From the NCBI GenBank assembly GCA_002352645.1, contig DEIU01000102.1, positions 22,761 through 86,760 of the forward strand: a DNA stretch of 64,000 nt, in the 5' to 3' direction. Below the pieces are notes generated by a model that saw only the letters and a list, made by a program, of their open reading frames with translations, did not search any database and was not told the origin of the DNA. Positions 6,695-38,762 of the stretch are shown here, in pieces. Position 1 is the stretch's first letter. Each line of letters begins with the position of its first letter. A program made the translations under genes and the position numbers. Origin of the DNA: Acidimicrobiia bacterium UBA2766 (GTDB lineage Bacteria > Actinomycetota > Acidimicrobiia > UBA2766).

Positions 6695-7432
6695 TTGAAT
6701 GGACGCTCCATGTGTGAGAAGGGAAAATTGCCGCGGGAAAGACTTTGTCCTGATCTTTACTGTCGGGGTGGTTGTTGGGATGTCCGACCGCCTTGCTCTT
6801 ACGAGCGTACTCACCTCTGGGTCTGTGTACCGATTTTTTGTTCTTGGCGACGAATAGATTAGTACGGTTTAGTTTTTAAAGTTGCTTTTCGTGGAGACTT
6901 GTGAAGAGACTGAGAAAAGCTTGGAAGAAGGTTGTTGGGAAGTTGAGGGAAGGTCATCGAGAGCTTGTTGGGGCATTGTGCTCTGTTCCTTTCCTGCATT
7001 CTTTCAGAATGACGGGAGATACTGAGGAAGGCATGCCTTGGTGAAGATACTCACAAGGGTTATGGCGACGAATTGGGAAATGGTCAGGAAGGAAGAGGAA
7101 CATACGCAGTGAGAAGCAGTGAATGCAGACAAGACTGAGTACTATTTGTTTTGATCAGAATAGCTCTCAAGATAATCCGTACTCGATGTCGACTTTGTTT
7201 AGACTTTCTCCAAAGCTATTTTGTAGAAGCGTTAAATGCGGAGATTAGATATCGTGAGGTGTTAGAGTAGGCAGCGGAGCGGGCCAGCTGATGTTGATTT
7301 TCTGTTGCGATCATTTCGCGGTCATGTCGCCAGGACGCGCCGTAAGAACAAGGTTTCTCTCACGGCGTCAACAGCATTTGGGTCCCGACAATTGAGAGGC
7401 AATACTCTACTTGTTGTCATAGAGGACGTTTT

Positions 7433-7867
7433 ATGGATTCTGTGAAGAAAAAACGCAGGATGAGCGAGGACCACAAGGCGGCAATTGCCGCGGGACGTGC
7501 TGAAGGCGCGGTTGTGCGACGGTATCTTGAGACTTTGGAAGCTCGGAAACAACCGGGTCGGAGAGTGTCGAGAGACCAATTGCAGCGCCGTCTTAAAGAG
7601 ACGATTGAAACTATTGAAGATGAAGGGAATCCGCTTGCAAAACTTGAGCTGATTCAACAGCGGATTGATCTTGAGAATCGTCTTGAGGCAGCGGAAGCAG
7701 AGGACAGTAACGAGCGGGCAGAAGAAGAGTTCGTGGAAGTTGCGAAGAGCTTTGCGGAGCGTAAAGGTATTACATATACGGCTTTTCGGGCAATGGGAGT
7801 GCCGGCTGCAGTAATGAAGGCCGCAGGTATTCCTCAGGAGCGGAACAGGAATGTTCCTGTTGGTTGA
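7433..7867 (+). CDS. hypothetical charged helical protein, possibly DNA-associated
   Basis: 144-aa ORF with good coding look (K/R/E-rich, coiled-coil-like). No recognisable motif. A terminator-like hairpin lies downstream. Confidence 0.45.
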   Translation: MDSVKKKRRMSEDHKAAIAAGRAEGAVVRRYLETLEARKQPGRRVSRDQLQRRLKETIETIEDEGNPLAKLELIQQRIDLENRLEAAEAEDSNERAEEEFVEVAKSFAERKGITYTAFRAMGVPAAVMKAAGIPQERNRNVPVG

Positions 7868-8032
7868 GGTTGTGTAGAGAACACTGATTAATATCCTGGT
7901 TACTGTGTGTTTCTCCCCTTTTTTCGTTCGATGTCTGATGATCCGTGCGCTATGAGCGAGAGAACAGACGCGGTGTGATTGAATTGTCTTTTTCCCGCGT
8001 GGTTCCTAGGTGATTTCCTTTGGCTAAGGTCA

Positions 8033-24747: not shown

Positions 24748-25198
24748 ATGGAGAAGAGGTAGACTCTCTTTTTCCTCTGTCTTTTCGCTGTGTTGCACTC
24801 GGAGTATTGCCGGTTGCTCTGATGCGATGCGACTCTTCTTGAGAACCGTGATCTTCTCGGGAGAGCTTGCTTGTGATAGGGCAGGTTTGTGAATTTCGTG
24901 GTCTCTTGCCGGGAAGAGGCCGGTAGCATGTGCAAGATGGCTTTGGGTGGACAATCCGTCGATATTGCTTGATAATACTGGGGCGACACTGGTAAAAGGC
25001 CTATGCGCGCAAGAGACAGACGTGCAGAATTGGTGGTGTGGCGGTCGGAGCAGCTGCTGCACTCTGCATATGAAAATAGCTGTTTTCTTGTGCGAGAGCG
25101 GTCCCTTTTGAGAAGGTGCATTGCCTATCGTCGCCGTTTGTATGTGCGATTGGCAGTGCGGTGACACTTGCTCCCCTGTTGAATGGCTTTTGCAGAGA

Positions 25199-26698
25199 AT
25201 GCCGGAAGATTTCACTCCCTCCAATACGCCTCTTGCGGAGCGCTTGCAGGCTGTTGATCGTGACCTGAAACACATGGCAGAAATTGTCGTTGTTGCTGTA
25301 GGGCGCGCGACAGAAGCCCTTCTGGCGAACGATGTGGATCGTGCACAAACCGTTATTGAGGAAGACGATATCCTCGACGCGTACTCTTTGGAATACGAAC
25401 GTTCCTGCATGGATCTTCTCGTGTGCAGTCACTTGGATGAAATAGGCGTACGCTCAGTTGTTACTGCTTTGAAAATGAATAGCGAGATCGAACGCAGTGG
25501 TGATCTTGCTGTCAATATTTGCAAAGGTGTTGGGCGGATTCAGGGTGCGTACATTAACCGGCAAATCCGCAATTTTTTACGCCATATGGGCGAGGAAGCC
25601 GGGGTTCTCTTCTCCCAGGCCATCAAGTTTTATGTAGAGAGGGACGAGGCGAAGGCCGCGACGCTGACTGACCTCGATGATCGTCTCGATGATCTGCATG
25701 ACCAATATATTGAAGTTGTTATTCGTACTGTTTCGCGGGGTGAACTCAACGCGCAACAGGGACTGCAACTGGCTGTACTCGGGCGATTCTATGAGCGTAT
25801 CGGTGATCATGCGGTCAATATTGCGGAGGGAGTGAGGCACCTATTCCCGGAATCGGAGATTTCCAGGGAAAGAGAAAAGCGTTTCGTTCCTTCCAAGGAA
25901 AATAATATGAAACGGGTGCTCGCACGGCGTATTCCGGGAGTCGCAGTCATTGAAGCTGCACAACAAGAACGCCGGATTGATGCTATTCGTCGTGATTTTG
26001 TGGTGAATGTCAGCCATGAACTCAAAACGCCAGTCGGGGCAATTGCCTTGCTCGCAGAAACCTTGTATGACGAGGAAGACATTAAGGTCCGTCGCCGTTT
26101 GCTGCATCGGATTACTGACGAGGCGCATCGAGTCAGTGAGACGATTGATGACCTTATTGATCTCGGACGCTTGGAAGAAGAAAAACAACCGCGCCATGTG
26201 TCGGTTTTTGTCTACGACATTGTGTCGAGTGGCTTGAATCATGTGTATGCATTCGCTACTCAAAAGGAAGTCGAAATCCAGATCCAAGAGTTTCCTGCCG
26301 GTTTGAGTGTGAGAGGAGATGCCCGTCAATTAGGGCGCGCGCTCTCCAACCTTTTCGATAACGCAGTCAAATACTCAGATCCTGGACATATTGTGACGGT
26401 GGGCGCGAAACAAGTAGGAGACAAGGTTGATATTCGGGTGCAAGATCAGGGAATCGGAATTCCCGCCCGCGACATAGAACGTATTTTTGAACGTTTCTAC
26501 AGGGTCGACCGCGCGCGTAGTCGGGCGACCGGAGGTACGGGCCTTGGTCTTGCCATTGTGCGCCATGTGATGACAAATCACAATGGTCGGGTACTTGTGG
26601 AATCAAGTGAAGGAGAGGGATCTGCTTTCACGCTCCAGCTTCCAAGTGCCGGAGAACACGCGGAGACGCCCGAAAGACAAACGCGTCATAGTGAGTGA
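25199..26698 (+). CDS. cytoplasmic histidine kinase with N-terminal PhoU domain (PhoU-HisKA-HATPase_c fusion)
   Basis: Two PhoU repeats (ERSGDLAVNICK and ERIGDHAVNIAE), then H-box VSHELKTP, N/G boxes (NLFDNAVKYS, GGTGLGLAIV). No predicted TM helix. Start uncertain (TTG 25121, ATG 25142, ATG 25199). Confidence 0.8.
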   Translation: MPEDFTPSNTPLAERLQAVDRDLKHMAEIVVVAVGRATEALLANDVDRAQTVIEEDDILDAYSLEYERSCMDLLVCSHLDEIGVRSVVTALKMNSEIERSGDLAVNICKGVGRIQGAYINRQIRNFLRHMGEEAGVLFSQAIKFYVERDEAKAATLTDLDDRLDDLHDQYIEVVIRTVSRGELNAQQGLQLAVLGRFYERIGDHAVNIAEGVRHLFPESEISREREKRFVPSKENNMKRVLARRIPGVAVIEAAQQERRIDAIRRDFVVNVSHELKTPVGAIALLAETLYDEEDIKVRRRLLHRITDEAHRVSETIDDLIDLGRLEEEKQPRHVSVFVYDIVSSGLNHVYAFATQKEVEIQIQEFPAGLSVRGDARQLGRALSNLFDNAVKYSDPGHIVTVGAKQVGDKVDIRVQDQGIGIPARDIERIFERFYRVDRARSRATGGTGLGLAIVRHVMTNHNGRVLVESSEGEGSAFTLQLPSAGEHAETPERQTRHSE

Positions 26699-28834: not shown

Positions 28835-31420
28835 TCACCCTTGGTGGAGGGTGGGATGGGGCTGTCGGTCCAGGAGTTGTTGCAAAGTATGCTGCGGGCC
28901 GAGAGGTGCCCAGATCTTCTTGTACTGCTCAGCTGTTTCTGTGGGCAGTGCTTGCACTTTGAGTATTTCGCTGGCCAGAGCCACTTGAAGAAGGCCGAAA
29001 CGGTGTTCTGATTTGTTCCAGATATCTACTGCGGCGAGGAGAGAGCTTTGCTTTTTTTCGGTTGTTGTTGCAAGCAGAGCCGTGATGAGGTGCTCGTTTG
29101 CTTGTATGGACGGGCGACGGATTTTCTTTGCGAGTTTTGCGTGTTCTCTCGCATGCGTGCGGGGGTCTTTTCCTGTTGCTGCCCTTGCTAAAACGAGGAC
29201 GGGGAGAGTGCGGACGAGCAGGTCGATAGATCCGATTTTGCGGAAGCCCTCTGCTGCCTGTGTGAAAGCTATCTGCGCGGTTTCGAAATCTCGTTTGAGC
29301 AGAGCGGTTGTTCCATGCCACCAGGTTGTGAGGGATCGGTCAAAAGGAGTGGATTGTTGGCGCAGGGCGTTTTCGCTGCGTGCAAGTGCTGTGTTTGCTG
29401 CGCTGGTGTTATCGCGTGCTGTTGCTATTGCAGTGGCGGCTGCCCAGATAGGGCCCATTTCGTGATTTGGCAGGTTCCGTTTGACTTCTGCTGCGGTTGC
29501 GATCGCGATTTCCATTCGCGTCCACTCGCAGGAGAGAAAGGCCGCTATGGTCTCTGTGCGTACTATGCGGGGGATTATGTCGGTAAGGCCGCGATTGTCT
29601 ACCCAGGTCTGCAGCTCTTGCAACGAAGTCAGCGCGTCCTGGAACTGATCTTGTGCAATTTGGGCAAGGCTAAGGGAGAGGAGCGGAGGAAAGTCCAAAA
29701 AGTCCTCTCCGAGTTCGCGCCAGTACTGTGTTGCCTGCACTGCTGTGCGAATGGAGTCGGGATGTAGGGTGACCGCTTCTACCATGGCCTGGTTCGCGAG
29801 AGAGGAAGCGATGCCGGCCTTGTCTTGTACTTTTCGTGCGGATGTGACTGCGAGAAGCGCTGCATTTCTTGCCTCTTGCACGTGTCCCAATGCCAAAAGG
29901 GTTTCGGCTTTCCCGCGTTCGGCGTCGATTCCCTGGCAAGACTCGAAAACGGTGAGAGATTTTTTGATTTTCCCGGTTCGTTGCAGAGAACGGGCCAATC
30001 CGAGTTTTCCTCGTTCTGTGTAACCGGGATCGAACTCACGCGTTGCTCTTTGAACGATGGCCTGGAAGATGCTGTAAGCATCGTTGTTCATGCCCAGGTA
30101 GAGCAGGGCTTCCGCCTTCACCGTCAAACATTTGTGCTGAAGTGTGAGGGATGGATGTAAGTTGAGTGCTTTATCCGAGAAATCCACTGCGATGGCAGGT
30201 CTTCCCTGATGAATCGCTGTTTCAGCAGCTTCAATCGCGAGTTCTACAACTGCATTGCTCCAGGGATGTTTCGTGTCGACGCCCGCGAGGGCGTGTGGCG
30301 CGATTTCTATTGGTGCCGCGTCCAATAGGGAGAGCAGGGTCGCAATGCGCCGGTGGAAGTCCTGCAGAATTGCCTCCGGCATGGCGGTTCTCACCATTTC
30401 GGGAAGCAGAGGATTGGCGAATGCCAGGGTGTTCCTCCTGGGGTTCTCGGTGTTTTCCTGGGTGCTTTCCAGGATGAGCTGGGCGTCATGTAGCTCTTGC
30501 AAAGGAAGGGCATCATCAGGGTCGAGGCCGGCCGCAAGCGCGCAAAAACGCGGACTTGCGCGACATCCGCTCATTGCTGCGACGCGCAGAAATGAGAGGG
30601 CATTGGGGGGAAGCCGTTCAATGCGCCAGAGCAGGAGAGAACTGAGGGTTGGGGCAGTTTCCAGCGTGAAATCGCCGGCATGCTTTGCAGCTTCTGCAAG
30701 TTCTTGTAAGAACAGGGGATTCCCCCCTGATCTCCCGGCGATTTGAGCGAGTCGTTTTTCGGTCGCTTGTCCTCTGGTGAGTTCATTGAGAAAGATGATG
30801 CTTTCGTCAAAGATGAGAGGTTCGATGGGCAGGACGATGGCATTGGTTTGTTCGAGGATCTGGTCGATCACCATATGATCGGGTCTGGTGGTAAGAAGAG
30901 TGAGGAGCGTTCTGTGCGCGCTTCGTCTTACCGTGTGGGCGATGATGGGGAGTAGCGCCTGGCGTGGGTCTTCTGTGGCGTCGAGGATCAGGATGGTGGT
31001 GCGAACCGCAGTTATTTGGGCGATAAGCTCGTCAAAAAGACGAAGAATTTCTCGGTGTTTTGCACCGCTGCGTACTGCTTCTGCGAGAACTGTGGCCTGA
31101 AAAGATGCCTTATTTTCCCGGATCGTGTGCGTGTGGCTGTTTACAAGGTCGCCTAAAGCAGCGTGAGGCTCTGGGATGTGCGTATCTGTCGGACAGAGCT
31201 GGAGCACGGCAGCGTCTTGTGCGTATGCCTCAATAAAATGAGTGAGGAGGTGGGTTTTCCCGATGCCTGCCTCGCCGACGAGCAAGACCGTGGCTGACTG
31301 TTGCGAGTGTGCCGTTTCTAGCGCACCTTCTAAGACGCGGAGTTCTGTCTGGCGGAAACGGAAATGGTCAGCGCTCGTCACATTCTTTAATTCTCGGTCA
31401 TGACCCTGAGGTCCCTGCAA
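28835..31420 (-). CDS. AAA_16-type ATPase with long TPR-like C-terminal region (LAL/STAND-like, no HTH seen)
   Basis: Walker A VGEAGIGKTHLL near the N-terminus, Walker B-like ILILDA, then about 600 aa of helical repeats. No LuxR-type HTH at the C-terminus. Confidence 0.6.
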   Translation of the reverse strand: MQGPQGHDRELKNVTSADHFRFRQTELRVLEGALETAHSQQSATVLLVGEAGIGKTHLLTHFIEAYAQDAAVLQLCPTDTHIPEPHAALGDLVNSHTHTIRENKASFQATVLAEAVRSGAKHREILRLFDELIAQITAVRTTILILDATEDPRQALLPIIAHTVRRSAHRTLLTLLTTRPDHMVIDQILEQTNAIVLPIEPLIFDESIIFLNELTRGQATEKRLAQIAGRSGGNPLFLQELAEAAKHAGDFTLETAPTLSSLLLWRIERLPPNALSFLRVAAMSGCRASPRFCALAAGLDPDDALPLQELHDAQLILESTQENTENPRRNTLAFANPLLPEMVRTAMPEAILQDFHRRIATLLSLLDAAPIEIAPHALAGVDTKHPWSNAVVELAIEAAETAIHQGRPAIAVDFSDKALNLHPSLTLQHKCLTVKAEALLYLGMNNDAYSIFQAIVQRATREFDPGYTERGKLGLARSLQRTGKIKKSLTVFESCQGIDAERGKAETLLALGHVQEARNAALLAVTSARKVQDKAGIASSLANQAMVEAVTLHPDSIRTAVQATQYWRELGEDFLDFPPLLSLSLAQIAQDQFQDALTSLQELQTWVDNRGLTDIIPRIVRTETIAAFLSCEWTRMEIAIATAAEVKRNLPNHEMGPIWAAATAIATARDNTSAANTALARSENALRQQSTPFDRSLTTWWHGTTALLKRDFETAQIAFTQAAEGFRKIGSIDLLVRTLPVLVLARAATGKDPRTHAREHAKLAKKIRRPSIQANEHLITALLATTTEKKQSSLLAAVDIWNKSEHRFGLLQVALASEILKVQALPTETAEQYKKIWAPLGPQHTLQQLLDRQPHPTLHQG

Positions 31421-31513
31421 TTCTGTTCGAAGCTGTGAAAAAAGAAGGCCTTGTTCTCACTGTCTTCCTGAGAAGCTATTTCCTGTCTGGCGGAAAACCC
31501 CTGCTTTTGACTT

Positions 31514-31555
31514 GTCTTCATCCGTCTTCATCCGTCTTGACGAGGCTTGACGAGG
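31514..31555. promoter_or_regulatory. direct repeats in a divergent promoter: 2 x GTCTTCATCC followed by 2 x CTTGACGAGG (GTCTT phased every 10 bp)
   Basis: Read directly: gtcttcatccgtcttcatccgtcttgacgaggcttgacgagg. Confidence 0.45.
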
Positions 31556-31678
31556 TAAGATTTGTCCCGGTTTTCAGATTCTTTAGGCTTTGCGCATTCT
31601 CAGTTTTTTCTGATTCCTACAGGGACTCTTCTCAAGTTCTACTCCTCATTGCTGACGAAAAGGAAACTGGAGTCGGTT

Positions 31679-32080
31679 ATGTCTTCTTCTGCTTCAGGTG
31701 CTGATGCAGCTGCTACCTCGAATAGCCCTGCTTTTTCATGTGATGTGTCTCGATCAGTCTCGCCTCCTGTTGCGCCTCCTGCTGTAGGTGAAGTGCTTCG
31801 TCTCATGATCGATGGTTGGCCTGTGGCTGTCTGGAATATCCAGGGAAATTTGTACGCGCTTGACGATATCTGCCCTCATCGAGGAGACATCCTGTCCGAG
31901 GGAGGTCTTGCGCGTGAGAGTGACGGCTCTTTCGCTGTTGTGTGCCCGCGACACGGCTGGCGATTCGATATGGAAACGGGAGACTGTCTGCACGCGCCTG
32001 ATCGCTTGCGGGTATGGCTTGTTCAGTATGTCTCCGATGGAATTCTTGTTTTGGCGTGTCCTGATACCCATGAATTTTGA
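31679..32080 (+). CDS. Rieske [2Fe-2S] domain protein (NirD-like small ferredoxin)
   Basis: CPHRGD ... CPRHGWRF (CxH...CxxH). ATG at 31679 with GGAG 7 nt upstream; the ORF track starts at TTG 31562. Confidence 0.75.
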   Translation: MSSSASGADAAATSNSPAFSCDVSRSVSPPVAPPAVGEVLRLMIDGWPVAVWNIQGNLYALDDICPHRGDILSEGGLARESDGSFAVVCPRHGWRFDMETGDCLHAPDRLRVWLVQYVSDGILVLACPDTHEF

Positions 32081-32690
32081 GTTGGGACGCGGGAAGGAGC
32101 CGGGGGAAAACCATGCATGAAAATAGGCATTTACGTGGTGTTCTGGCGGCTTCGCGCGAGATTCGTGAGGATTTGCATATGCAGTCTCGAGGCAAGGGAA
32201 AGGGAAAAAGGCAAAGAGCGGAGGGAATCAGGGAGGCAAGACCTTTGTGAAAGTCCTAGGATGGTGCCGCGATTCATTTTTGGCTTTACGAGCGAAACCT
32301 TGTGAGTTGCAGGTTTTTTCTGCCACCTTCCTTCTTCTGTTTGCCCTCCTTGGTTGTCCTGGGCACTAGTTCCCGGTATGCCAGATGAGGTTATTGCAGG
32401 CGCATGGTTTGTGCGGTAACTTTTGTTTTGGTTGAGGTGCTTGCAAAAGGGCAGGAGAGTGGGGGAGAGTTCACTTTCTTTGGCTTTCGTGCAGTGTGGC
32501 CCAACCGAAACGGTGTTTTTTGCGAAATACCTCATAATTGGTGACTGGCGCAGACGTTTCCCAGACTCTTTTATTGAGTTGGGGGAGATGGCGACATAGG
32601 GCCTGGCATATGTTTGGCAAGTTGCACTGCTATTAATGGCAGAACGCATTGCTTGTCACTTATGGGGGTCTTTGACATTCCGGAGCGACC

Positions 32691-34706
32691 ATGGCTGAAC
32701 ACTTCGATGCCCTTCTTGAGAGCATCTCCGGCGCACCTGTTTTGAATCGGGGTGACCTTGCACTCGCTTTTCTGGACGGGCAGAAATCAGACAGGCTTGC
32801 CGAAGTGAAGGATTCGCTCGCGGTCAAACCGTCTCCAAAGATCCCACCTCGGTATGAATCTGAAATTCGTACTTGGCTTGCGCGCGCGGCCATAGAAGGA
32901 TTGTCTCCTGGCGGCGAAAAGGAGGAGGCGACGCAAGCCCGCATTCAGGCATACTCTGCTGTTCATCTTGACCCTCATAATACCGACGCCATTGGTGCCC
33001 TTGACGCTGCCCTTTTGTTTTTGCAGGGCGACGTGCGAATGAATACTTGGAGGGCCCTTTCCCGCAGCTATCCCGAAGTACAGTCGGTACGGAACGCGGC
33101 AGAAGCCGCGGGAGTTGTGCCGCCTGATCCTGCGGCAGTGAAAGCGGCAAGACGGCGGGCACCGCGTCGGAAACCCACTTCTTCCGGCGGGCAAGATCAC
33201 AAAGGAGACTCTTCACATGGGGGAGGGCAGGGCGGTCAAAAGCGCAAACGGCGTCCTCGTGCCAGCGGACTGGCCAGGATTCTTCCCCTGTATGAGCCTG
33301 ATCCAGTGAAGGCTGACCGCCTCGCGGTGATTAACCTGGCCATGGGAGTCGAATGGACGCCCGCGGCTTCTCCGTTGAGTGAACTCGACCCTCTGAGCTG
33401 GGCGACCCGCCGTATGGCCGGCGAAGAAGTTGGAGATCCTCCGCGCCAGGCAGTCGCTACTGCTGATTTTGTCTTGCTCACAATGGGCATGTTGTCTCGC
33501 GGAGAGGAACCAGGTCCGCGCTACGGTCACATTATCAAGCGCCTCAAGGGTCATCCCGCAGTTGTCCTGTGGGCAACGAAACGTCAGCTTGATGCGGGAG
33601 ATTTCTCTGGTGCCCGCAAGGCGTTTGGGCGTGTCAACCTCGCTGATTACCCCGTTTTTGCCGATGAGGTCTCTGCCCTCTCAGAGACGATGGCGATTGT
33701 GAATGGTGACGCTGACATCGGATGGCGCCGTTGGGAATCTGGGGAATTGCCCGCTGCTCTTCGTGCTCCTCTGGCTGAAGCCTTGATCGCGGCAGGTCGT
33801 GAGACGCAGGCCGATGAAGTCATGGGTTTGCCAGAAGTGCTGGCTGCTTCTCTGGATGACAGAGCCCTGCTTGAGCTGCGTTTTGACTTGATGTTTGTCG
33901 ACGGATACAGCACAAGAGCGCTGGAGCAGGCATTCCGTCTTGTGGAATTGGGACCTTTCTCCAGGCGAGCGGTCGGTCGTCTCTGGTTGGCTCTCGCGTT
34001 CTCGGGTCGTCAGGATGAGCTGCTGGGCCGTGTTGACGAAGACGCAGAACGTGTCGGTGTGCCGATGGAAGAGATCGTCGACTCAGTCAGGTCTATTTTG
34101 TCGCGTCGCGTCGCGCGTGTGACGCAAAAGTTGACGGAAAAGGCAACAGAGACACGAGCTTCTTTGCAGCATCTTGCAAAAGGCAAGACCATTCGCAATG
34201 CTGAGCTTTTCACGCAGGCTGTTGCCACGGCTCGCTCAGGGCTGGATGAACTGCAACCCATGACAGAAGTGCTTGGGCTCAAGAGCAGTGAATATCCGCA
34301 GGCTTTGGAAGATCTCCTGACGCTTCTTGCTGTGGGCACAGGACGTACGGTTTCTGTAGAGGGCGATAAAGTACTTCTTTTTGGTGAATCGTCAACTTCA
34401 GATCACCCTGTTCTCAAATCTTTTACTGCCCCCGCCCAGGAAATTTGTGCGCGTAGTGCCACCATCAATGAGATGGCCAAGCGTGCCCTGCTCTCCCTCG
34501 ATAGCGCGGTTGAAGAGAGTGGACGTGTCGATCTTGCACGGCGTCGCCTTGAGGAGAGGGTCTCAAAACAGGCACGCCAAGCTGCTGATCTCTTGAACGC
34601 AATCGTGGTTTCTTTTGATCTTTCCTCCTCGCCTCCAACCCTGGAAGAGGCGCTTGAGAGTAGTGAGACCGATGCTGAGGTGAAAGACGAAGACGAAGAC
34701 GAGTAA
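32691..34706 (+). CDS. hypothetical protein, 671 aa, no recognisable motif
   Basis: Long ORF with coding-like composition. Gly/Lys/Arg-rich segment near aa 180-200. Acidic C-terminus. Confidence 0.5.
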   Translation: MAEHFDALLESISGAPVLNRGDLALAFLDGQKSDRLAEVKDSLAVKPSPKIPPRYESEIRTWLARAAIEGLSPGGEKEEATQARIQAYSAVHLDPHNTDAIGALDAALLFLQGDVRMNTWRALSRSYPEVQSVRNAAEAAGVVPPDPAAVKAARRRAPRRKPTSSGGQDHKGDSSHGGGQGGQKRKRRPRASGLARILPLYEPDPVKADRLAVINLAMGVEWTPAASPLSELDPLSWATRRMAGEEVGDPPRQAVATADFVLLTMGMLSRGEEPGPRYGHIIKRLKGHPAVVLWATKRQLDAGDFSGARKAFGRVNLADYPVFADEVSALSETMAIVNGDADIGWRRWESGELPAALRAPLAEALIAAGRETQADEVMGLPEVLAASLDDRALLELRFDLMFVDGYSTRALEQAFRLVELGPFSRRAVGRLWLALAFSGRQDELLGRVDEDAERVGVPMEEIVDSVRSILSRRVARVTQKLTEKATETRASLQHLAKGKTIRNAELFTQAVATARSGLDELQPMTEVLGLKSSEYPQALEDLLTLLAVGTGRTVSVEGDKVLLFGESSTSDHPVLKSFTAPAQEICARSATINEMAKRALLSLDSAVEESGRVDLARRRLEERVSKQARQAADLLNAIVVSFDLSSSPPTLEEALESSETDAEVKDEDEDE

Positions 34707-34886
34707 CTCGCGCCCGCCGGGACTGGGCTGGGAACGACACCTGGGCCAGTTCGCTTGAGGAGAAAAGCGCTGTGAAGTCAACATGAGGCGTGCTCGCGCA
34801 GAAGGAGATGCAATAGCAGTGGCGAGCACGGCGATAAGACGCTGGAGAGCGCATCGCCCGGAGGGTGCATCACAGAAGGGAAGAGC

Positions 34887-36092
34887 TTGAGAGAGCGAGC
34901 CACGCCGGCAGATCTTCTTTATGCGTACAGTCCGGATGAACTCGATCCCTGGGTGGCGGGTTTGGAGCTCGATCTCGAGAGAGATGTTGGCGAGGCAAAC
35001 GTGCGGCGTGCCCTGGAAGAGGCCTTGACCTTGCACCCCCGGTGTGGCGCGTACTTGAAAGGAAAACAATGGAGAAGGCGGCAACCATCTGACGCGTATG
35101 CCATGTTACCATTGGGAGACGATGAAGACTGGGATGACTTGCGGCCCGCTCTTCTTGACACCTGGTTTGACCCTGAAGGCGATCCTGGATTGCGTGTCGC
35201 CTATGAAGATGGGCACCTTTTTTTGGCTTGGGCACATGGTGTGACCGATGTCGCCGGAGCTGTGGGGTTTGTGTCGAGTCTGATGCATACCCTTGCCGGA
35301 AACGCTGTATTTTCTCCTGCGCAAGGGGCGACCGCAACGGACCTGCAGAAGAGTTTGCGCACTCAAATGTTGCGTCCCTCAGTTTTGTGGGAGTTTGCGC
35401 GTCGTGTACGCGGTTCTTCTGCGAAAGCAGCGGGGTTTCCCTGGCCTCTGACTTCCGCTGTTGCCGCGGCGAGTGATGCCGCAGTCTGGGTTCTTGACAA
35501 TGCCGAATTTGCGAAAATTCTTGCCCGGGCAGCCCAGGAGAATGGCAGCTTCACGGGGGCATTGACCGCTGCTTTGGCAGGCATGTGTGTAGACCGGTGT
35601 GCCCCGGGAGAGACCGCTACGGTCTACATTCCGCTGAATTTGCGTCCTTCGCATGCCCAGTGGTGGCCATTGGGCAACTGGGTCGGTAGTGTGGAGATCT
35701 TGTGTGAAGGGCCTGTGACCATCGCTCAGGTGCAGGCGCGCCTTACGCGGGCTCTCGAAGGCCACAATCGGTATGCACCATTACTCACAAATCTTGTGCG
35801 GTCAAAGCTCCCGCGCCGCGCGCGCACACAGCTTGCAACACGGCGCTCTCCTGATTTGTCCACCCCTCCTGCCCGAACGATTTGTTTGAACAATCTTGGC
35901 AAGGTTCCCAAGGAAATGTTGCCGGAGGTGGAGCGAGCAGTCTTCCATGCCCCAACTGGGGTGAAATCTCCGACCCTTTCTGTGCTGAGCGTGGGAGATG
36001 TGACCACTTTTAACATGCGTGTTCGCCGGCACCAAGGGGGTCTTGCGCTTGCGCGAGAGCTGATGGAAGAACTGAAAACGCGTGTGCTGTGA
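34887..36092 (+). CDS. hypothetical protein, 401 aa; possible CoA-dependent acyltransferase-superfamily relative (degenerate HxxxD, AHGVTDVAG)
   Basis: Motif position (about aa 128) and length resemble WS/DGAT, PapA and condensation-domain proteins, but only one His is present. TTG start. Confidence 0.4.
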   Translation: MRERATPADLLYAYSPDELDPWVAGLELDLERDVGEANVRRALEEALTLHPRCGAYLKGKQWRRRQPSDAYAMLPLGDDEDWDDLRPALLDTWFDPEGDPGLRVAYEDGHLFLAWAHGVTDVAGAVGFVSSLMHTLAGNAVFSPAQGATATDLQKSLRTQMLRPSVLWEFARRVRGSSAKAAGFPWPLTSAVAAASDAAVWVLDNAEFAKILARAAQENGSFTGALTAALAGMCVDRCAPGETATVYIPLNLRPSHAQWWPLGNWVGSVEILCEGPVTIAQVQARLTRALEGHNRYAPLLTNLVRSKLPRRARTQLATRRSPDLSTPPARTICLNNLGKVPKEMLPEVERAVFHAPTGVKSPTLSVLSVGDVTTFNMRVRRHQGGLALARELMEELKTRVL

Positions 36093-36206: not shown

Positions 36207-37397
36207 TTAGAGGAGTTCGTCGTAGAGCTGTTTCCAGGCGGTTGTCATACGTTTGCGTGAATAGGCTGCTGCGTCGATGCCGGCTTGGGTGGCGTACGCG
36301 CGTGCCTTTACTGGGTCTTCGAGAATTTCACGCAAGACGTTGGTGAGTGTGGTGGTGTCGCGGGCGGGAACAAGCCGTCCGTTGTGATGGTCACTGATCA
36401 TGTGAGGGAGCCCGCCAACGTCAGATGTGACAACAACCCGACCTGCAGACATGGCTTCTGCGACGGAGAGTGGGGTGCCTTCGTGGTAAGACGGGAGGAC
36501 GAAAACATCAATTTTTGCGAGGAGTGCAGGGACGTCGTGTACGTGTCCGAGAAAGTCGATTGTGGCGCCTGTCGCGGTGGCATGTTCGCGTAGGGCGTGT
36601 TCTTCTGGGCCTGCTCCGGCAATGAGCGCTTGCGGCGGGCAATCGGGGCGTTCTCTCTGCAAGGTTCCAACTGCTGAAATATATTCTCGTATGCCTTTTT
36701 CGCCGGTGAGGCGGGTGATCATGCCGAGAACAGGTGCGGTATCTCGGGAAAAGGGCGGCCTTGCCACGCGGAAGCGTTCGATGTCGATTCCCCCGGGGAT
36801 GTGCACGGCCTTTGTTTCTGGGACTTTTTGGTATTCGATCAGCAGCCTGCGAGATTCTTCGGAAACACAGACGATTTTGCTGCTACGCCGGAGGAGCAGT
36901 CGGTCGAGCAGACGGATGGCGTACCGAGGGGAGGGAAATGTGACGGTCCGCCATGCTTCAAGGCCGTGCACGGCGCGCACGGTTGGAATCTTGTTTTGCC
37001 GGCCCAGGTAGGTTGCCCAGAGGTCCGCTCGGTTGAGATGACTACAGATGAGTGCGGCATTGTTGTCTTGGAGGAAGTGCCGTAAGGCACGTGCGCCAGA
37101 CACGTTCCAGACGCGTTCCATGCTGGTGACGATCATTGGAATGCCAAGCGCTTCGAATTGGGGTTTCATACTGTCGAGGTTGAAAGACTGCGCTTCAGCA
37201 TGGCCTTCACGTAAGAAAATAACGGCTGCCTGGTACGGATTTTTTTGGGGGTGACGCGTGTGTGGCTTTGTTGGCCCAGTATCTTGTGCTCCGTTCGAGA
37301 CGATATCGGAAACAAGTTGGTACATTATTTCGCGTGGGGCACCGCGCACGGGGGAACTTATCATGTGGACGATGGTGGGAGGGGGTGTGTGGGACAT
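36207..37397 (-). CDS. glycosyltransferase family 4 (GT-B, retaining)
   Basis: EGTPLSVAEAMSAGRVVV... E-X7-E region. N-terminal HMISSPVRGAPRE motif. ATG at 37397 with GGAAAG RBS; the ORF track extends to GTG 37529. Confidence 0.8.
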   Translation of the reverse strand: MSHTPPPTIVHMISSPVRGAPREIMYQLVSDIVSNGAQDTGPTKPHTRHPQKNPYQAAVIFLREGHAEAQSFNLDSMKPQFEALGIPMIVTSMERVWNVSGARALRHFLQDNNAALICSHLNRADLWATYLGRQNKIPTVRAVHGLEAWRTVTFPSPRYAIRLLDRLLLRRSSKIVCVSEESRRLLIEYQKVPETKAVHIPGGIDIERFRVARPPFSRDTAPVLGMITRLTGEKGIREYISAVGTLQRERPDCPPQALIAGAGPEEHALREHATATGATIDFLGHVHDVPALLAKIDVFVLPSYHEGTPLSVAEAMSAGRVVVTSDVGGLPHMISDHHNGRLVPARDTTTLTNVLREILEDPVKARAYATQAGIDAAAYSRKRMTTAWKQLYDELL

Positions 37398-37535
37398 GAT
37401 TTTTGGCTTTCCGAGCGTTGTTTGCCGGCGTGTGTGGGGGGTGGTATGCGGTTTTCTTTGAGTGATGTCTGGTCCCTGTGCGAGCCGTACCGTACACTTG
37501 GCATGTCCTTCTTGTCGATCGTTGCACACACCGAG

Positions 37536-38762
37536 ATGACCACAAGTCCTAAAACTTCATTTGATGCGAAAAAAATATTTTCTTCTATTCCTGAAGCCGT
37601 TGCCGATCTGGCGGTAGGGAAGCTGGTCGTCGTGGTTGATGACGCCGACCGAGAGAACGAAGGTGACCTTGTCGCCATTGCCGAAAAGTGTACGCCTGAG
37701 ACTATTAATTTCATGGCGACACACAGTAGAGGGTTGATTTGTACTCCGATATCTGGCGAGCGTCTTGATGCGTTGGAGATCGACCAAATGGTCTCGGTAA
37801 ATACAGATACGCATGGAACTGCTTTCTCTGTGACTGTCGATGTCGACACGAATTCCACAGGAATCTCGGCAGCAGATCGCTCGGATACAATCCAGGCCCT
37901 GATAAACCCGTCCAGTAAACCGGAGGATTTTCGCCGACCCGGACATACCTTTCCCCTGCGTTATACAGAAGGAGGGGTGCTCCGTAGAGCCGGCCATACA
38001 GAGGCAGCAGTCGATCTTGCATTGCTTGCCAATTGCAGTCCTGCCGGTGTGATCTGCGAAATTATGGGTGACGATGGGACAATGGCCCGTTTGCCAGAAC
38101 TCGTAGAGTTCTGTGAGAAACATGGGCTGCGCATTATTTCTATCGCTGATCTCATTCATTATCGACGGCAGTCTGAAAAATTAGTACGCCGAGTGGTCGA
38201 AACCCGTATCCCGACCGAATATGGGGAATTCCGTTGTGTGGGGTATGAGTCTTCGATTGATGGAACGGAGCATGTGGCCTTCGTGAAAGGCGATGTGTCT
38301 GGCGAAGACGACGTGCTTGTGCGTGTGCATGCCGAGTATTTCATTGGCGACATCTTGGGCTACCGTGAGAATGACAGTCGTTCTCTGCTTCGTGCGGCCA
38401 TGCGTTGTATCGCGGAAAGCGGAAAAGGGGTCCTGCTTTACTTCCGTCGGTATGACGGAAAAGACGTCAGTGTTGTTGACGAACTTTCTTCTTTCAAGGG
38501 GCAGCGAAGTAAAAACTATATGCGGATGGATGACCGGGATTATGGCATTGGTGCCCAGATCCTGGTGGACTTGGGCGTGACGTCCATGTGTCTTTTGTCG
38601 AATCATCCTGCCACGAGGCGGGTTGGTCTTGCCGGTTACGGTCTTTCAGTGACGGAAACCCTTTCTCTCGCGGGAGAAAAGAAGCCACCGAAACGGCAAG
38701 CATTTGCTGATCTACTTGAGGGCCTCTCCGAAGCCGACCTTCTTCGTGTTGACCGGGAATAG
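37536..38762 (+). CDS. ribBA: 3,4-dihydroxy-2-butanone-4-phosphate synthase fused to a degenerate GTP cyclohydrolase II-like domain (RibBX-like)
   Basis: The RibB half is intact (DRENEGDL, HTEAAVDL). In the RibA half the zinc-ligand cysteines are replaced: RVHAEYFIGDILGYRENDSRS where the canonical sequence is RVHSECLTGD...RCDCG. ATG at 37536. Confidence 0.85.
   Translation: MTTSPKTSFDAKKIFSSIPEAVADLAVGKLVVVVDDADRENEGDLVAIAEKCTPETINFMATHSRGLICTPISGERLDALEIDQMVSVNTDTHGTAFSVTVDVDTNSTGISAADRSDTIQALINPSSKPEDFRRPGHTFPLRYTEGGVLRRAGHTEAAVDLALLANCSPAGVICEIMGDDGTMARLPELVEFCEKHGLRIISIADLIHYRRQSEKLVRRVVETRIPTEYGEFRCVGYESSIDGTEHVAFVKGDVSGEDDVLVRVHAEYFIGDILGYRENDSRSLLRAAMRCIAESGKGVLLYFRRYDGKDVSVVDELSSFKGQRSKNYMRMDDRDYGIGAQILVDLGVTSMCLLSNHPATRRVGLAGYGLSVTETLSLAGEKKPPKRQAFADLLEGLSEADLLRVDRE

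Follow-up and report, generated by a model that had tools for sequence, protein, structure and literature searches.

The STAND-type NTPases of the MalT/AfsR/LAL class are built from an N-terminal P-loop NTPase (Walker A and B motifs, AAA_16/NACHT domain) followed by a long arm of tetratricopeptide repeats (TPR) or other helices. A protein of this layout, 861 amino acids (aa) in length, is encoded in a 64,000-nucleotide stretch of contig DEIU01000102.1 from the Acidimicrobiia bacterium UBA2766 (the window, by which that whole stretch is meant). It resembles the class also in size (800–860 aa) and in its divergent placement by a putative target operon. Unlike the regulators of this class, the protein, here called the STAND protein, is free at both ends of domains that bind DNA (LuxR, SARP or other) or act as effectors, and it has no sequence match to any of the solved STAND proteins. 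The adjoining operon encodes a small Rieske protein, a 671-aa protein (p671) and a 401-aa protein (p401). To our knowledge, a Rieske protein and a solenoid have not been described as partners of the MalT/AfsR/LAL class.

The closest described counterparts of the Rieske protein are HcaC, AndAb, T4moC and NirD, with which it shares a Rieske fold of about 100 residues and the CxH...CxxH ligand pattern; its best NCBIfam similarities are to NirD and HcaC. However, it scores below all equivalog cut-offs, has no cognate oxygenase, reductase or nitrite reductase nearby, and is instead genetically coupled to a probable TPR-like scaffold, to which it is fused in one lineage. For p401, the nearest described proteins are PapA5, PapA1/2/3 and the stand-alone condensation acyltransferases, WS/DGAT being more distant. 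The protein agrees with them in length (about 400–450 aa) and in the catalytic His and Asp that follow a beta-strand, and it may share their two-lobed architecture, like that of chloramphenicol acetyltransferase (CAT; the AlphaFold pLDDT of p401 is only 40). It departs from the PapA proteins in that the first His of the HHxxxDG motif is replaced, no Pfam model scores, and no polyketide synthase (PKS), fatty acyl-AMP ligase (FAAL), carrier protein or MmpL transporter lies near, a scaffold gene being coupled to it instead. The sole structural matches of p671, returned by Foldseek with its predicted model, are the all-alpha repeats of the OGT TPR domain, Tom70/71, Ctr9 and Naa15. These matches are weak (E values of at least 6e-4, TM-score about 0.2), no sequence homology connects the proteins, and the N-terminal motifs PPRYESE and VHLDPHN and the basic linker of p671 have no counterpart in them. 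Of these, Naa15 sets a precedent, as it is a TPR scaffold with an acyltransferase bound to it.

Our analysis reveals a STAND NTPase gene, without an effector domain, divergent from an operon that encodes a ligand-intact Rieske protein and p671, joined in about half of the lineages by p401. We propose as the likeliest reading, with a probability of roughly 0.35, that these genes encode a cytoplasmic module specific to Acidimicrobiia, in which an NTPase-switched, Rieske-bearing scaffold would work with an accessory acyltransferase; the mechanism that we infer for it is set out in the last section. The features of the locus are the following.

28835..31420, minus strand: STAND-type P-loop NTPase (AAA_16/NACHT-like) with TPR and a helical C-terminal body (Pfam, family profile)
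31421..31678: promoter region between the divergent genes, containing two 10-bp tandem duplications (sequence inspection, lineage comparison)
31679..32080, plus strand: Rieske [2Fe-2S] protein of 133 aa, small and soluble, its N-terminus of low complexity (Pfam)
32081..32690: non-coding spacer of 610 bp from the Rieske gene to p671, specific to the window lineage (Rfam, BLAST, codon score)
32691..34706, plus strand: p671, new family, predicted to be an all-alpha TPR-like solenoid (homologue alignment, AlphaFold)
34887..36092, plus strand: p401, divergent stand-alone condensation/PapA-like acyltransferase with the motif A-H117-GVT-D121-VAG (profile searches)
36207..37397, minus strand: family 4 glycosyltransferase (GT4), convergent with p401 (Pfam Glycos_transf_1, E 6e-31)

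The locus across Acidimicrobiia lineages

Comparison was made with a set of 12 distinguishable Acidimicrobiia lineages from public contigs, with a G+C content (GC) of 0.55–0.735; a scan of metagenome contigs contributed one further locus, of a lineage already in the set. Protein identity across the 12 lineages is 30–48%. In 11 of them a STAND orthologue (35–40% identity) is divergent from and adjacent to the p671 gene or operon, and in 10 the Rieske gene lies directly 5' of p671, including one lineage in which the two are fused in frame. A p401 homologue (30–35% identity) is found directly 3' of p671 in half of the ten lineages with visible 3' sequence. An earlier note on this DNA, made from the sequence alone, had proposed the conservation of the four-gene neighbourhood as a check, and the context is indeed kept across lineages at these frequencies.

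Two features of the operon bear on its coherence. The fusion of the Rieske domain with p671 into a single reading frame (P0019) belongs to one lineage and is present on contigs of three sequencing runs. The p671 and p401 genes overlap or are separated by a gap of a few bases at four loci of three lineages (L002, L009, L017, L018), a spacing that is consistent with translational coupling; in the window the gap is 180 bp. Together, the fusion and the overlaps argue for a functional unit and point to pairwise functional coupling of the Rieske protein with p671 and of p671 with p401. The gene on the far side of the STAND gene varies by lineage, being an alpha/beta hydrolase, a sulfatase, an HD_4 protein or prolyl-tRNA synthetase (ProRS). 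Because the genes 5' of the STAND gene differ between lineages, its pairing with the operon survives local rearrangement, and this persistent divergent pairing suggests that the products of the operon and the STAND NTPase form one group.

All four open reading frames (ORFs) that the earlier note had placed here were found at the positions listed above. Each of the four is a real gene: its codon usage resembles that of the host, and diverged homologues of it exist. The codon support asked for in the case of the two long frames is present: their codon log-likelihoods are 0.25 (p671) and 0.15 (p401) bits per codon. Shadow ORFs score from 0.00 down to -0.17, and a set of 12 reference genes from the window 0.16–0.31. 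Transmembrane segments are absent from all four proteins and all are predicted to be soluble. Among genome records, relatives of p671 occur only in metagenome-assembled genomes (MAGs) labelled Acidimicrobiia or Actinobacteria.

Domain content of the four proteins

The STAND protein scores above the Pfam cut-offs for AAA_16 (47.7 bits, cut-off 32.6, E 3e-12) and NACHT (33.0 bits, cut-off 26.7, E 7e-8), while NCBIfam returns only P-loop-level similarities. Its Walker A motif (GEAGIGKT) and Walker B aspartate (ILILD, D147) are kept in an alignment of five lineages, with D147 invariant. Having both Walker motifs and scores above the family thresholds, it is a P-loop NTPase of the STAND/AAA_16 type. 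Single-sequence Pfam scores for TPR remain below threshold, whereas the five-lineage profile matches designed and consensus TPR proteins over residues 389–474 (E 9e-15), which identifies a C-terminal repeat arm of the sensor type. No helix-turn-helix (HTH), LuxR or SARP domain was found in the protein at E<=0.1 in Pfam or NCBIfam, the five-lineage profile gave no DNA-binding match against the PDB, and no DNA-binding domain of the LAL/MalT type, be it a C-terminal LuxR or an N-terminal SARP one, was recognised. No effector or output domain was found in the protein, and the single sequence has no relative among solved structures. These searches bear out the description in the earlier note of an ATPase with TPR body and without HTH. 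Public gene calls make the protein 848 aa long in some cases. In the lineage with the fusion, the STAND protein (L011 646-3195, minus strand; also L012 and L013) reads GEAGVGTS instead of GxxGxGK[ST], with Thr in place of the Walker A Lys, and this substitution suggests a degenerate nucleotide site.

The Rieske ORF passes the Pfam Rieske model clearly (58 bits, cut-off 20.3). Its scores against the NCBIfam equivalogs, 50.8 bits for NirD (cut-off 74.65) and 48.5 bits for the HcaC type (cut-off 113), are below every cut-off, and the label 'divergent' is fair for this reason. The cluster ligands read CPHRG...CPRHG in the window, and the pattern CPHRG...CP(R/G)H is kept in all ten lineages with a Rieske gene. 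With a domain above threshold and the CxH...CxxH pattern, the 133-aa protein is a Rieske [2Fe-2S] protein, and the intact but divergent Rieske protein described earlier is confirmed. An assignment to the NirD or HcaC type finds neither an equivalog score nor a cognate partner nearby: no NirB or dioxygenase partner is present among the genes examined around the block, which cover about 19–48 kb of the window. The start of the gene is likely the ATG at 31679, as in the public gene call, and not the TTG at 31562.

No Pfam or NCBIfam model and no PDB sequence matches p671. Twelve homologues with 37–48% identity are present in the protein collection and more in related genome and metagenome contigs; Pfam finds no domain in these homologues, except for an N-terminal Rieske domain in one. 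The alignment holds 106 invariant positions, including PPRYESE, VHLDP, HPA and LAKGxTIR. The protein consists of an N-terminal helical domain, a disordered basic linker of 44 residues (158–201, pI 11.9), a long C-terminal body of helical repeats and coils, and an acidic tail. The AlphaFold model computed from the homologue alignment is all-alpha and confident (pLDDT 85.5). Hints of TPR character come from Pfam TPR_19, with an E value of 0.054 in the window protein and of 8e-4 at best, in 2 of 13 members, and from the family profile, which gives a marginal match to consensus TPR among PDB sequences (E 0.0035), with equally marginal apolipoprotein-like signals. We regard p671 as probably a scaffold and not an enzyme, and nothing speaks for an enzymatic function. 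A paralogous origin of p671 from the sensor arm of the STAND protein was considered and ruled out, the two being unrelated by hhalign.

In some p671 homologues (P0025, P0026 and L006 8001-10142) the C-terminus is prolonged by a long acidic stretch rich in proline, the last residues of which form a short tail, basic and aromatic (GRWFRFRRGG, GRWFRRRR, RWWRRGR). The window protein has the acidic tail without this basic aromatic end. The tail resembles a terminal peptide for docking or membrane binding.

Alone, p401 has no match in Pfam or NCBIfam, and k-mer searches with the single sequence or a four-sequence profile recover its own small family only. The earlier note had called p671 and p401 orphans without recognisable motifs; neither has a Pfam or NCBIfam match, but homologues exist for both, and 'orphan' was an overstatement. 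The p401 family profile does not match PDB sequences. When p401 and two relatives were combined into a profile, an exhaustive HMMER search found 81 proteins, eight of them at E<1e-30 (one being the cluster of the query itself) and 73 more distant, mostly of 400–450 aa. Pfam applied to 57 of these matches identified Condensation in 39, PapA_C in 17 and WS_DGAT_cat in 12, and several pass the Condensation gathering score. The three-sequence profile aligns with Condensation-bearing proteins over about 370 columns at E values from 1e-13 to 1e-9. Comparison of the p401 core family with 23 Condensation/PapA_C-bearing proteins by hhalign gave a probability of 99.9% (E 5e-34, 389 columns), and placed H117 on the catalytic His of HAxxDG. 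The expanded profile has its best solved match in 8s6l, a phthiocerol dimycocerosyl transferase of the PapA5 type, over its full length (E 3e-28), and reaches condensation domains of non-ribosomal peptide synthetases (NRPS) and WS/DGAT structures as well. The homology found by the profile searches covers both lobes of the CAT-like acyltransferase superfamily.

The AHGVTDVAG motif noticed earlier is confirmed: in 35 relatives H117, D121, P249 and R253 do not vary, and G124 is invariant in the core family of 12 sequences. The first His of HHxxxDG is not conserved, its place being taken by A, R, P, M or L in the p401 family, and the motif is present in the reduced form xHxxxDxxG. The low pLDDT of the p401 model was obtained from three sequences only. 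Taken together, the profile evidence supports the assignment of p401 as a putative remote stand-alone member of the condensation/PapA/WS-DGAT acyltransferase superfamily, and the earlier suggestion of a CAT/condensation-like protein with its catalytic His in AHGVTD holds.

Non-coding and flanking regions

The divergent intergenic region contains two tandem duplications, GTCTTCATCC x2 at 31514-31533 and CTTGACGAGG x2 at 31536-31555. Counterpart regions in related lineages are 39–164 bp long and lack the tandem 10-mers. The repeats at the promoter to which the earlier note had drawn attention are therefore present but specific to this lineage, and their absence from the much shorter intergenic regions of related lineages leaves them without support as operators. 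They could be products of slippage or a lineage-specific operator. A promoter scan of the divergent region found no sigma-70-like consensus site, and the scan for promoters and terminators was uninformative. As for the 610-bp spacer, the Rieske and p671 genes are much closer together in the gene calls of other lineages; it has no Rfam match (gathering threshold or E<=1) and neither BLAST nor tblastx matched it with other parts of the window or with related loci. The minus-strand ORF of 172 aa that a public annotation puts there (32131-32649) has no codon support (score 0.00, GC at the first codon position 0.48).

A GT4 orthologue occupies the same position in the window, L002, L005, L008/L016 and L015 and is not found there in L007, L009 and L017. 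It is possible that GT4 is a functional neighbour of p401, though not a constant member of the block. The maximal ORFs of GT4 (36207-37529, minus strand) and RibBA (37245-38762, plus strand) overlap by about 285 bp; the later starts in public gene calls (396 and 419 aa) remove this overlap and leave two divergent genes with a gap of about 100 bp. A sulfotransferase and two glycosyltransferases lie 3' of the p401 homologue of L002 (13308-16769). This gene set recalls sulfoglycolipid synthesis, which combines a sulfotransferase with a PapA-type acyltransferase; no PKS or transporter was seen there. A divergent p401 relative (P0035), at whose locus p671 is missing, has as neighbours a ParA-like ATPase, sugar epimerases and a glycosyltransferase; the last is not orthologous to the GT4 of the window. 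Two other distant p401 relatives, P0041 and P0036, are on contigs whose shortness leaves their gene context uninformative.

The block lies in an ordinary chromosomal region. On its 5' side are ProRS, pstSCAB, a PhoU-fused histidine kinase with a response regulator, and an alpha/beta hydrolase; on its 3' side are GT4, RibBA, a TPR protein, glutamate dehydrogenase (GDH), an SNF2/DUF3670 helicase and M23 peptidases. GC in the window is about 0.53, and no rRNA, tRNA or Rfam match is present in it. The window lineage is a low-GC outlier (about 53–55%) compared with all other cluster-bearing lineages (L002–L018), which range from 62 to 73.5%. Genes of the window recur in identical or near-identical form on public metagenome contigs of up to 160 kb. 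Directly 3' of pstSCAB, a 525-aa ORF (25121-26698, plus strand) contains two N-terminal PhoU repeats followed by HisKA and HATPase_c, with the last part of the ORF running into the start of a response regulator gene of the OmpR type. It looks like a PhoU–histidine kinase fusion acting as a soluble phosphate-sensing kinase.

A proposed module and its alternatives

In the module that we propose, the Rieske protein would dock on the p671 solenoid, the two being one polypeptide in one lineage, and the pair might serve as a redox-active subunit, either sensor or adaptor. The nucleotide switch would come from the STAND NTPase, which has a TPR sensor arm as well but lacks an output of its own, and would act on or through the scaffold by protein–protein contact. 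Where present, p401 would be a recruited catalytic output that may use its HxxxD site for O- or N-acylation of a substrate. The likeliest substrate would be a glycoconjugate or glycolipid of the envelope because glycosyltransferase neighbours recur, namely GT4 in the window, the sulfotransferase with two glycosyltransferases in L002, and the glycosyltransferase with epimerases beside P0035. A fuller version, which we regard as speculative and rather unlikely, would be a 'split' STAND system in which the scaffold-borne Rieske cluster senses redox state or oxygen, the NTPase is the switch, and the acyltransferase output remodels an envelope lipid or glycan.

Several observations weigh against such a module, and some of them speak for the main alternative, which we consider quite possible, though short of probable. 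According to it the genes form no single module and stand side by side mainly by inherited synteny; p401 would act with one or more glycosyltransferases in the acylation of envelope glycans or glycolipids, the STAND protein would work on its own, as a regulator or a chaperone-like ATPase, and Rieske and p671 would be a separate pair. The block is set in a conserved backbone (ProRS ... RibBA-GDH-SNF2 helicase) whose members, the SNF2/DUF3670 helicase among them, recur around it in many lineages, and the linkage may in part be inherited synteny. One lineage (L004/L014) has p671 alone, with neither STAND nor Rieske gene, and in L006, an Acidimicrobiia MAG, a gene for a GreA-like transcription elongation factor (7392-7868, plus strand) occupies the place between STAND and p671 where the Rieske gene normally lies. 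Half of the lineages lack p401, its divergent relative beside a glycosyltransferase and epimerases occurs without p671, and the glycosyltransferases beside p401 relatives are not orthologous to one another. Furthermore, no homologue of known function ties the four proteins together, the structural matches of p671 are so generic (TM-score about 0.2) that an enzymatic or nucleic-acid-binding role is conceivable, and the Thr for Lys exchange in the fusion lineage means that ATP turnover by the STAND protein may not be universal. However, the Rieske–p671 fusion and the p671/p401 overlaps indicate a functional link within each pair at least, the divergent arrangement of STAND gene and operon persists where the genes on the other side of the STAND gene change, and with identities of 35–48% and GC from 55 to 73% the divergence is deep enough to erode neutral synteny.

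The earlier note had also offered a self-contained redox/acyl-transfer module, which in its biosynthetic form would have Rieske electrons pass to an oxygenase-like p671 and p401 acylate the product. The Rieske ligands are intact, Rieske ferredoxins donate electrons to all-alpha diiron hydroxylases (T4moC/T4moH), p671 is all-alpha with invariant H92, D94, H288, E56 and E58, and p401 is assigned as an acyltransferase. But Pfam and NCBIfam find no reductase, oxygenase catalytic domain, carrier protein or acyl-activating enzyme in the block, paired ExxH motifs are missing among the invariant columns of p671, and a scaffold would account better than an enzyme for the disordered basic linker of 44 residues and the coiled C-terminus of this protein. 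With no oxygenase or reductase partner for the Rieske protein, a p671 that does not look enzymatic and a p401 confined to half of the lineages, such a pathway is unsupported and we think it distinctly unlikely; of the interpretation given in that note, the domain readings, the p401 motif and the neighbourhood stand and the pathway does not. It is also conceivable, though doubtful, that the 861-aa protein is a LAL/MalT-like activator whose DNA-binding element has been lost or is unrecognised and which controls the Rieske–p671–p401 operon through the intergenic repeats. AAA_16 with TPR is the architecture of the LAL, MalT and AfsR regulators, a divergent regulator–target arrangement is seen in 11 of 12 lineages, and tandem 10-mers are present in the promoter region of the window; against this, the searches of Pfam, NCBIfam and, with the family profile, the PDB described above recovered no HTH, LuxR or SARP element, and the repeats are absent from other lineages, some of which have only 39–84 bp between the genes.

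An Avs-like STAND system of anti-phage defence with accessory genes was considered and is disfavoured by the PADLOC results and by the conserved core-genome position; we hold it to be highly improbable. A weak PADLOC match to Avs2 (E 1.6e-5) and sub-threshold Pfam matches to nSTAND3 and nSTAND_NTPase5 point to it, but the Avs2 match spans about 50 residues round the P-loop only (residues 18–65) and does not extend beyond it, no nuclease, protease, TIR or other effector domain is found, and p671, p401 and the Rieske protein have no PADLOC match. In addition, and unlike mobile defence islands, the block does not change its place in the core chromosome among lineages whose GC differs by as much as 18 points.

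A full-text literature search for an association of Rieske, STAND and TPR proteins found nothing relevant, and we know of no description of the STAND–Rieske–solenoid combination. The gene combination is new, while every component comes from a known structural or domain class; p671 is a new family without any database model, and p401 has diverged too far for current Pfam models to recognise. What biological gain will follow is uncertain, as the organisms are uncultured and no phenotype is attached to the genes. If the linkage reflects a real complex, it would be a case of a STAND NTPase in bacteria that relies wholly on separate partner proteins for its action, and of a scaffold-tethered Rieske cluster used outside electron-transfer chains and oxygenases. 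The p671 family is now defined with a confident predicted structure, and the change of p401 from 'hypothetical' to a condensation/PapA-type acyltransferase improves the annotation of uncultured marine and soil Acidimicrobiia.

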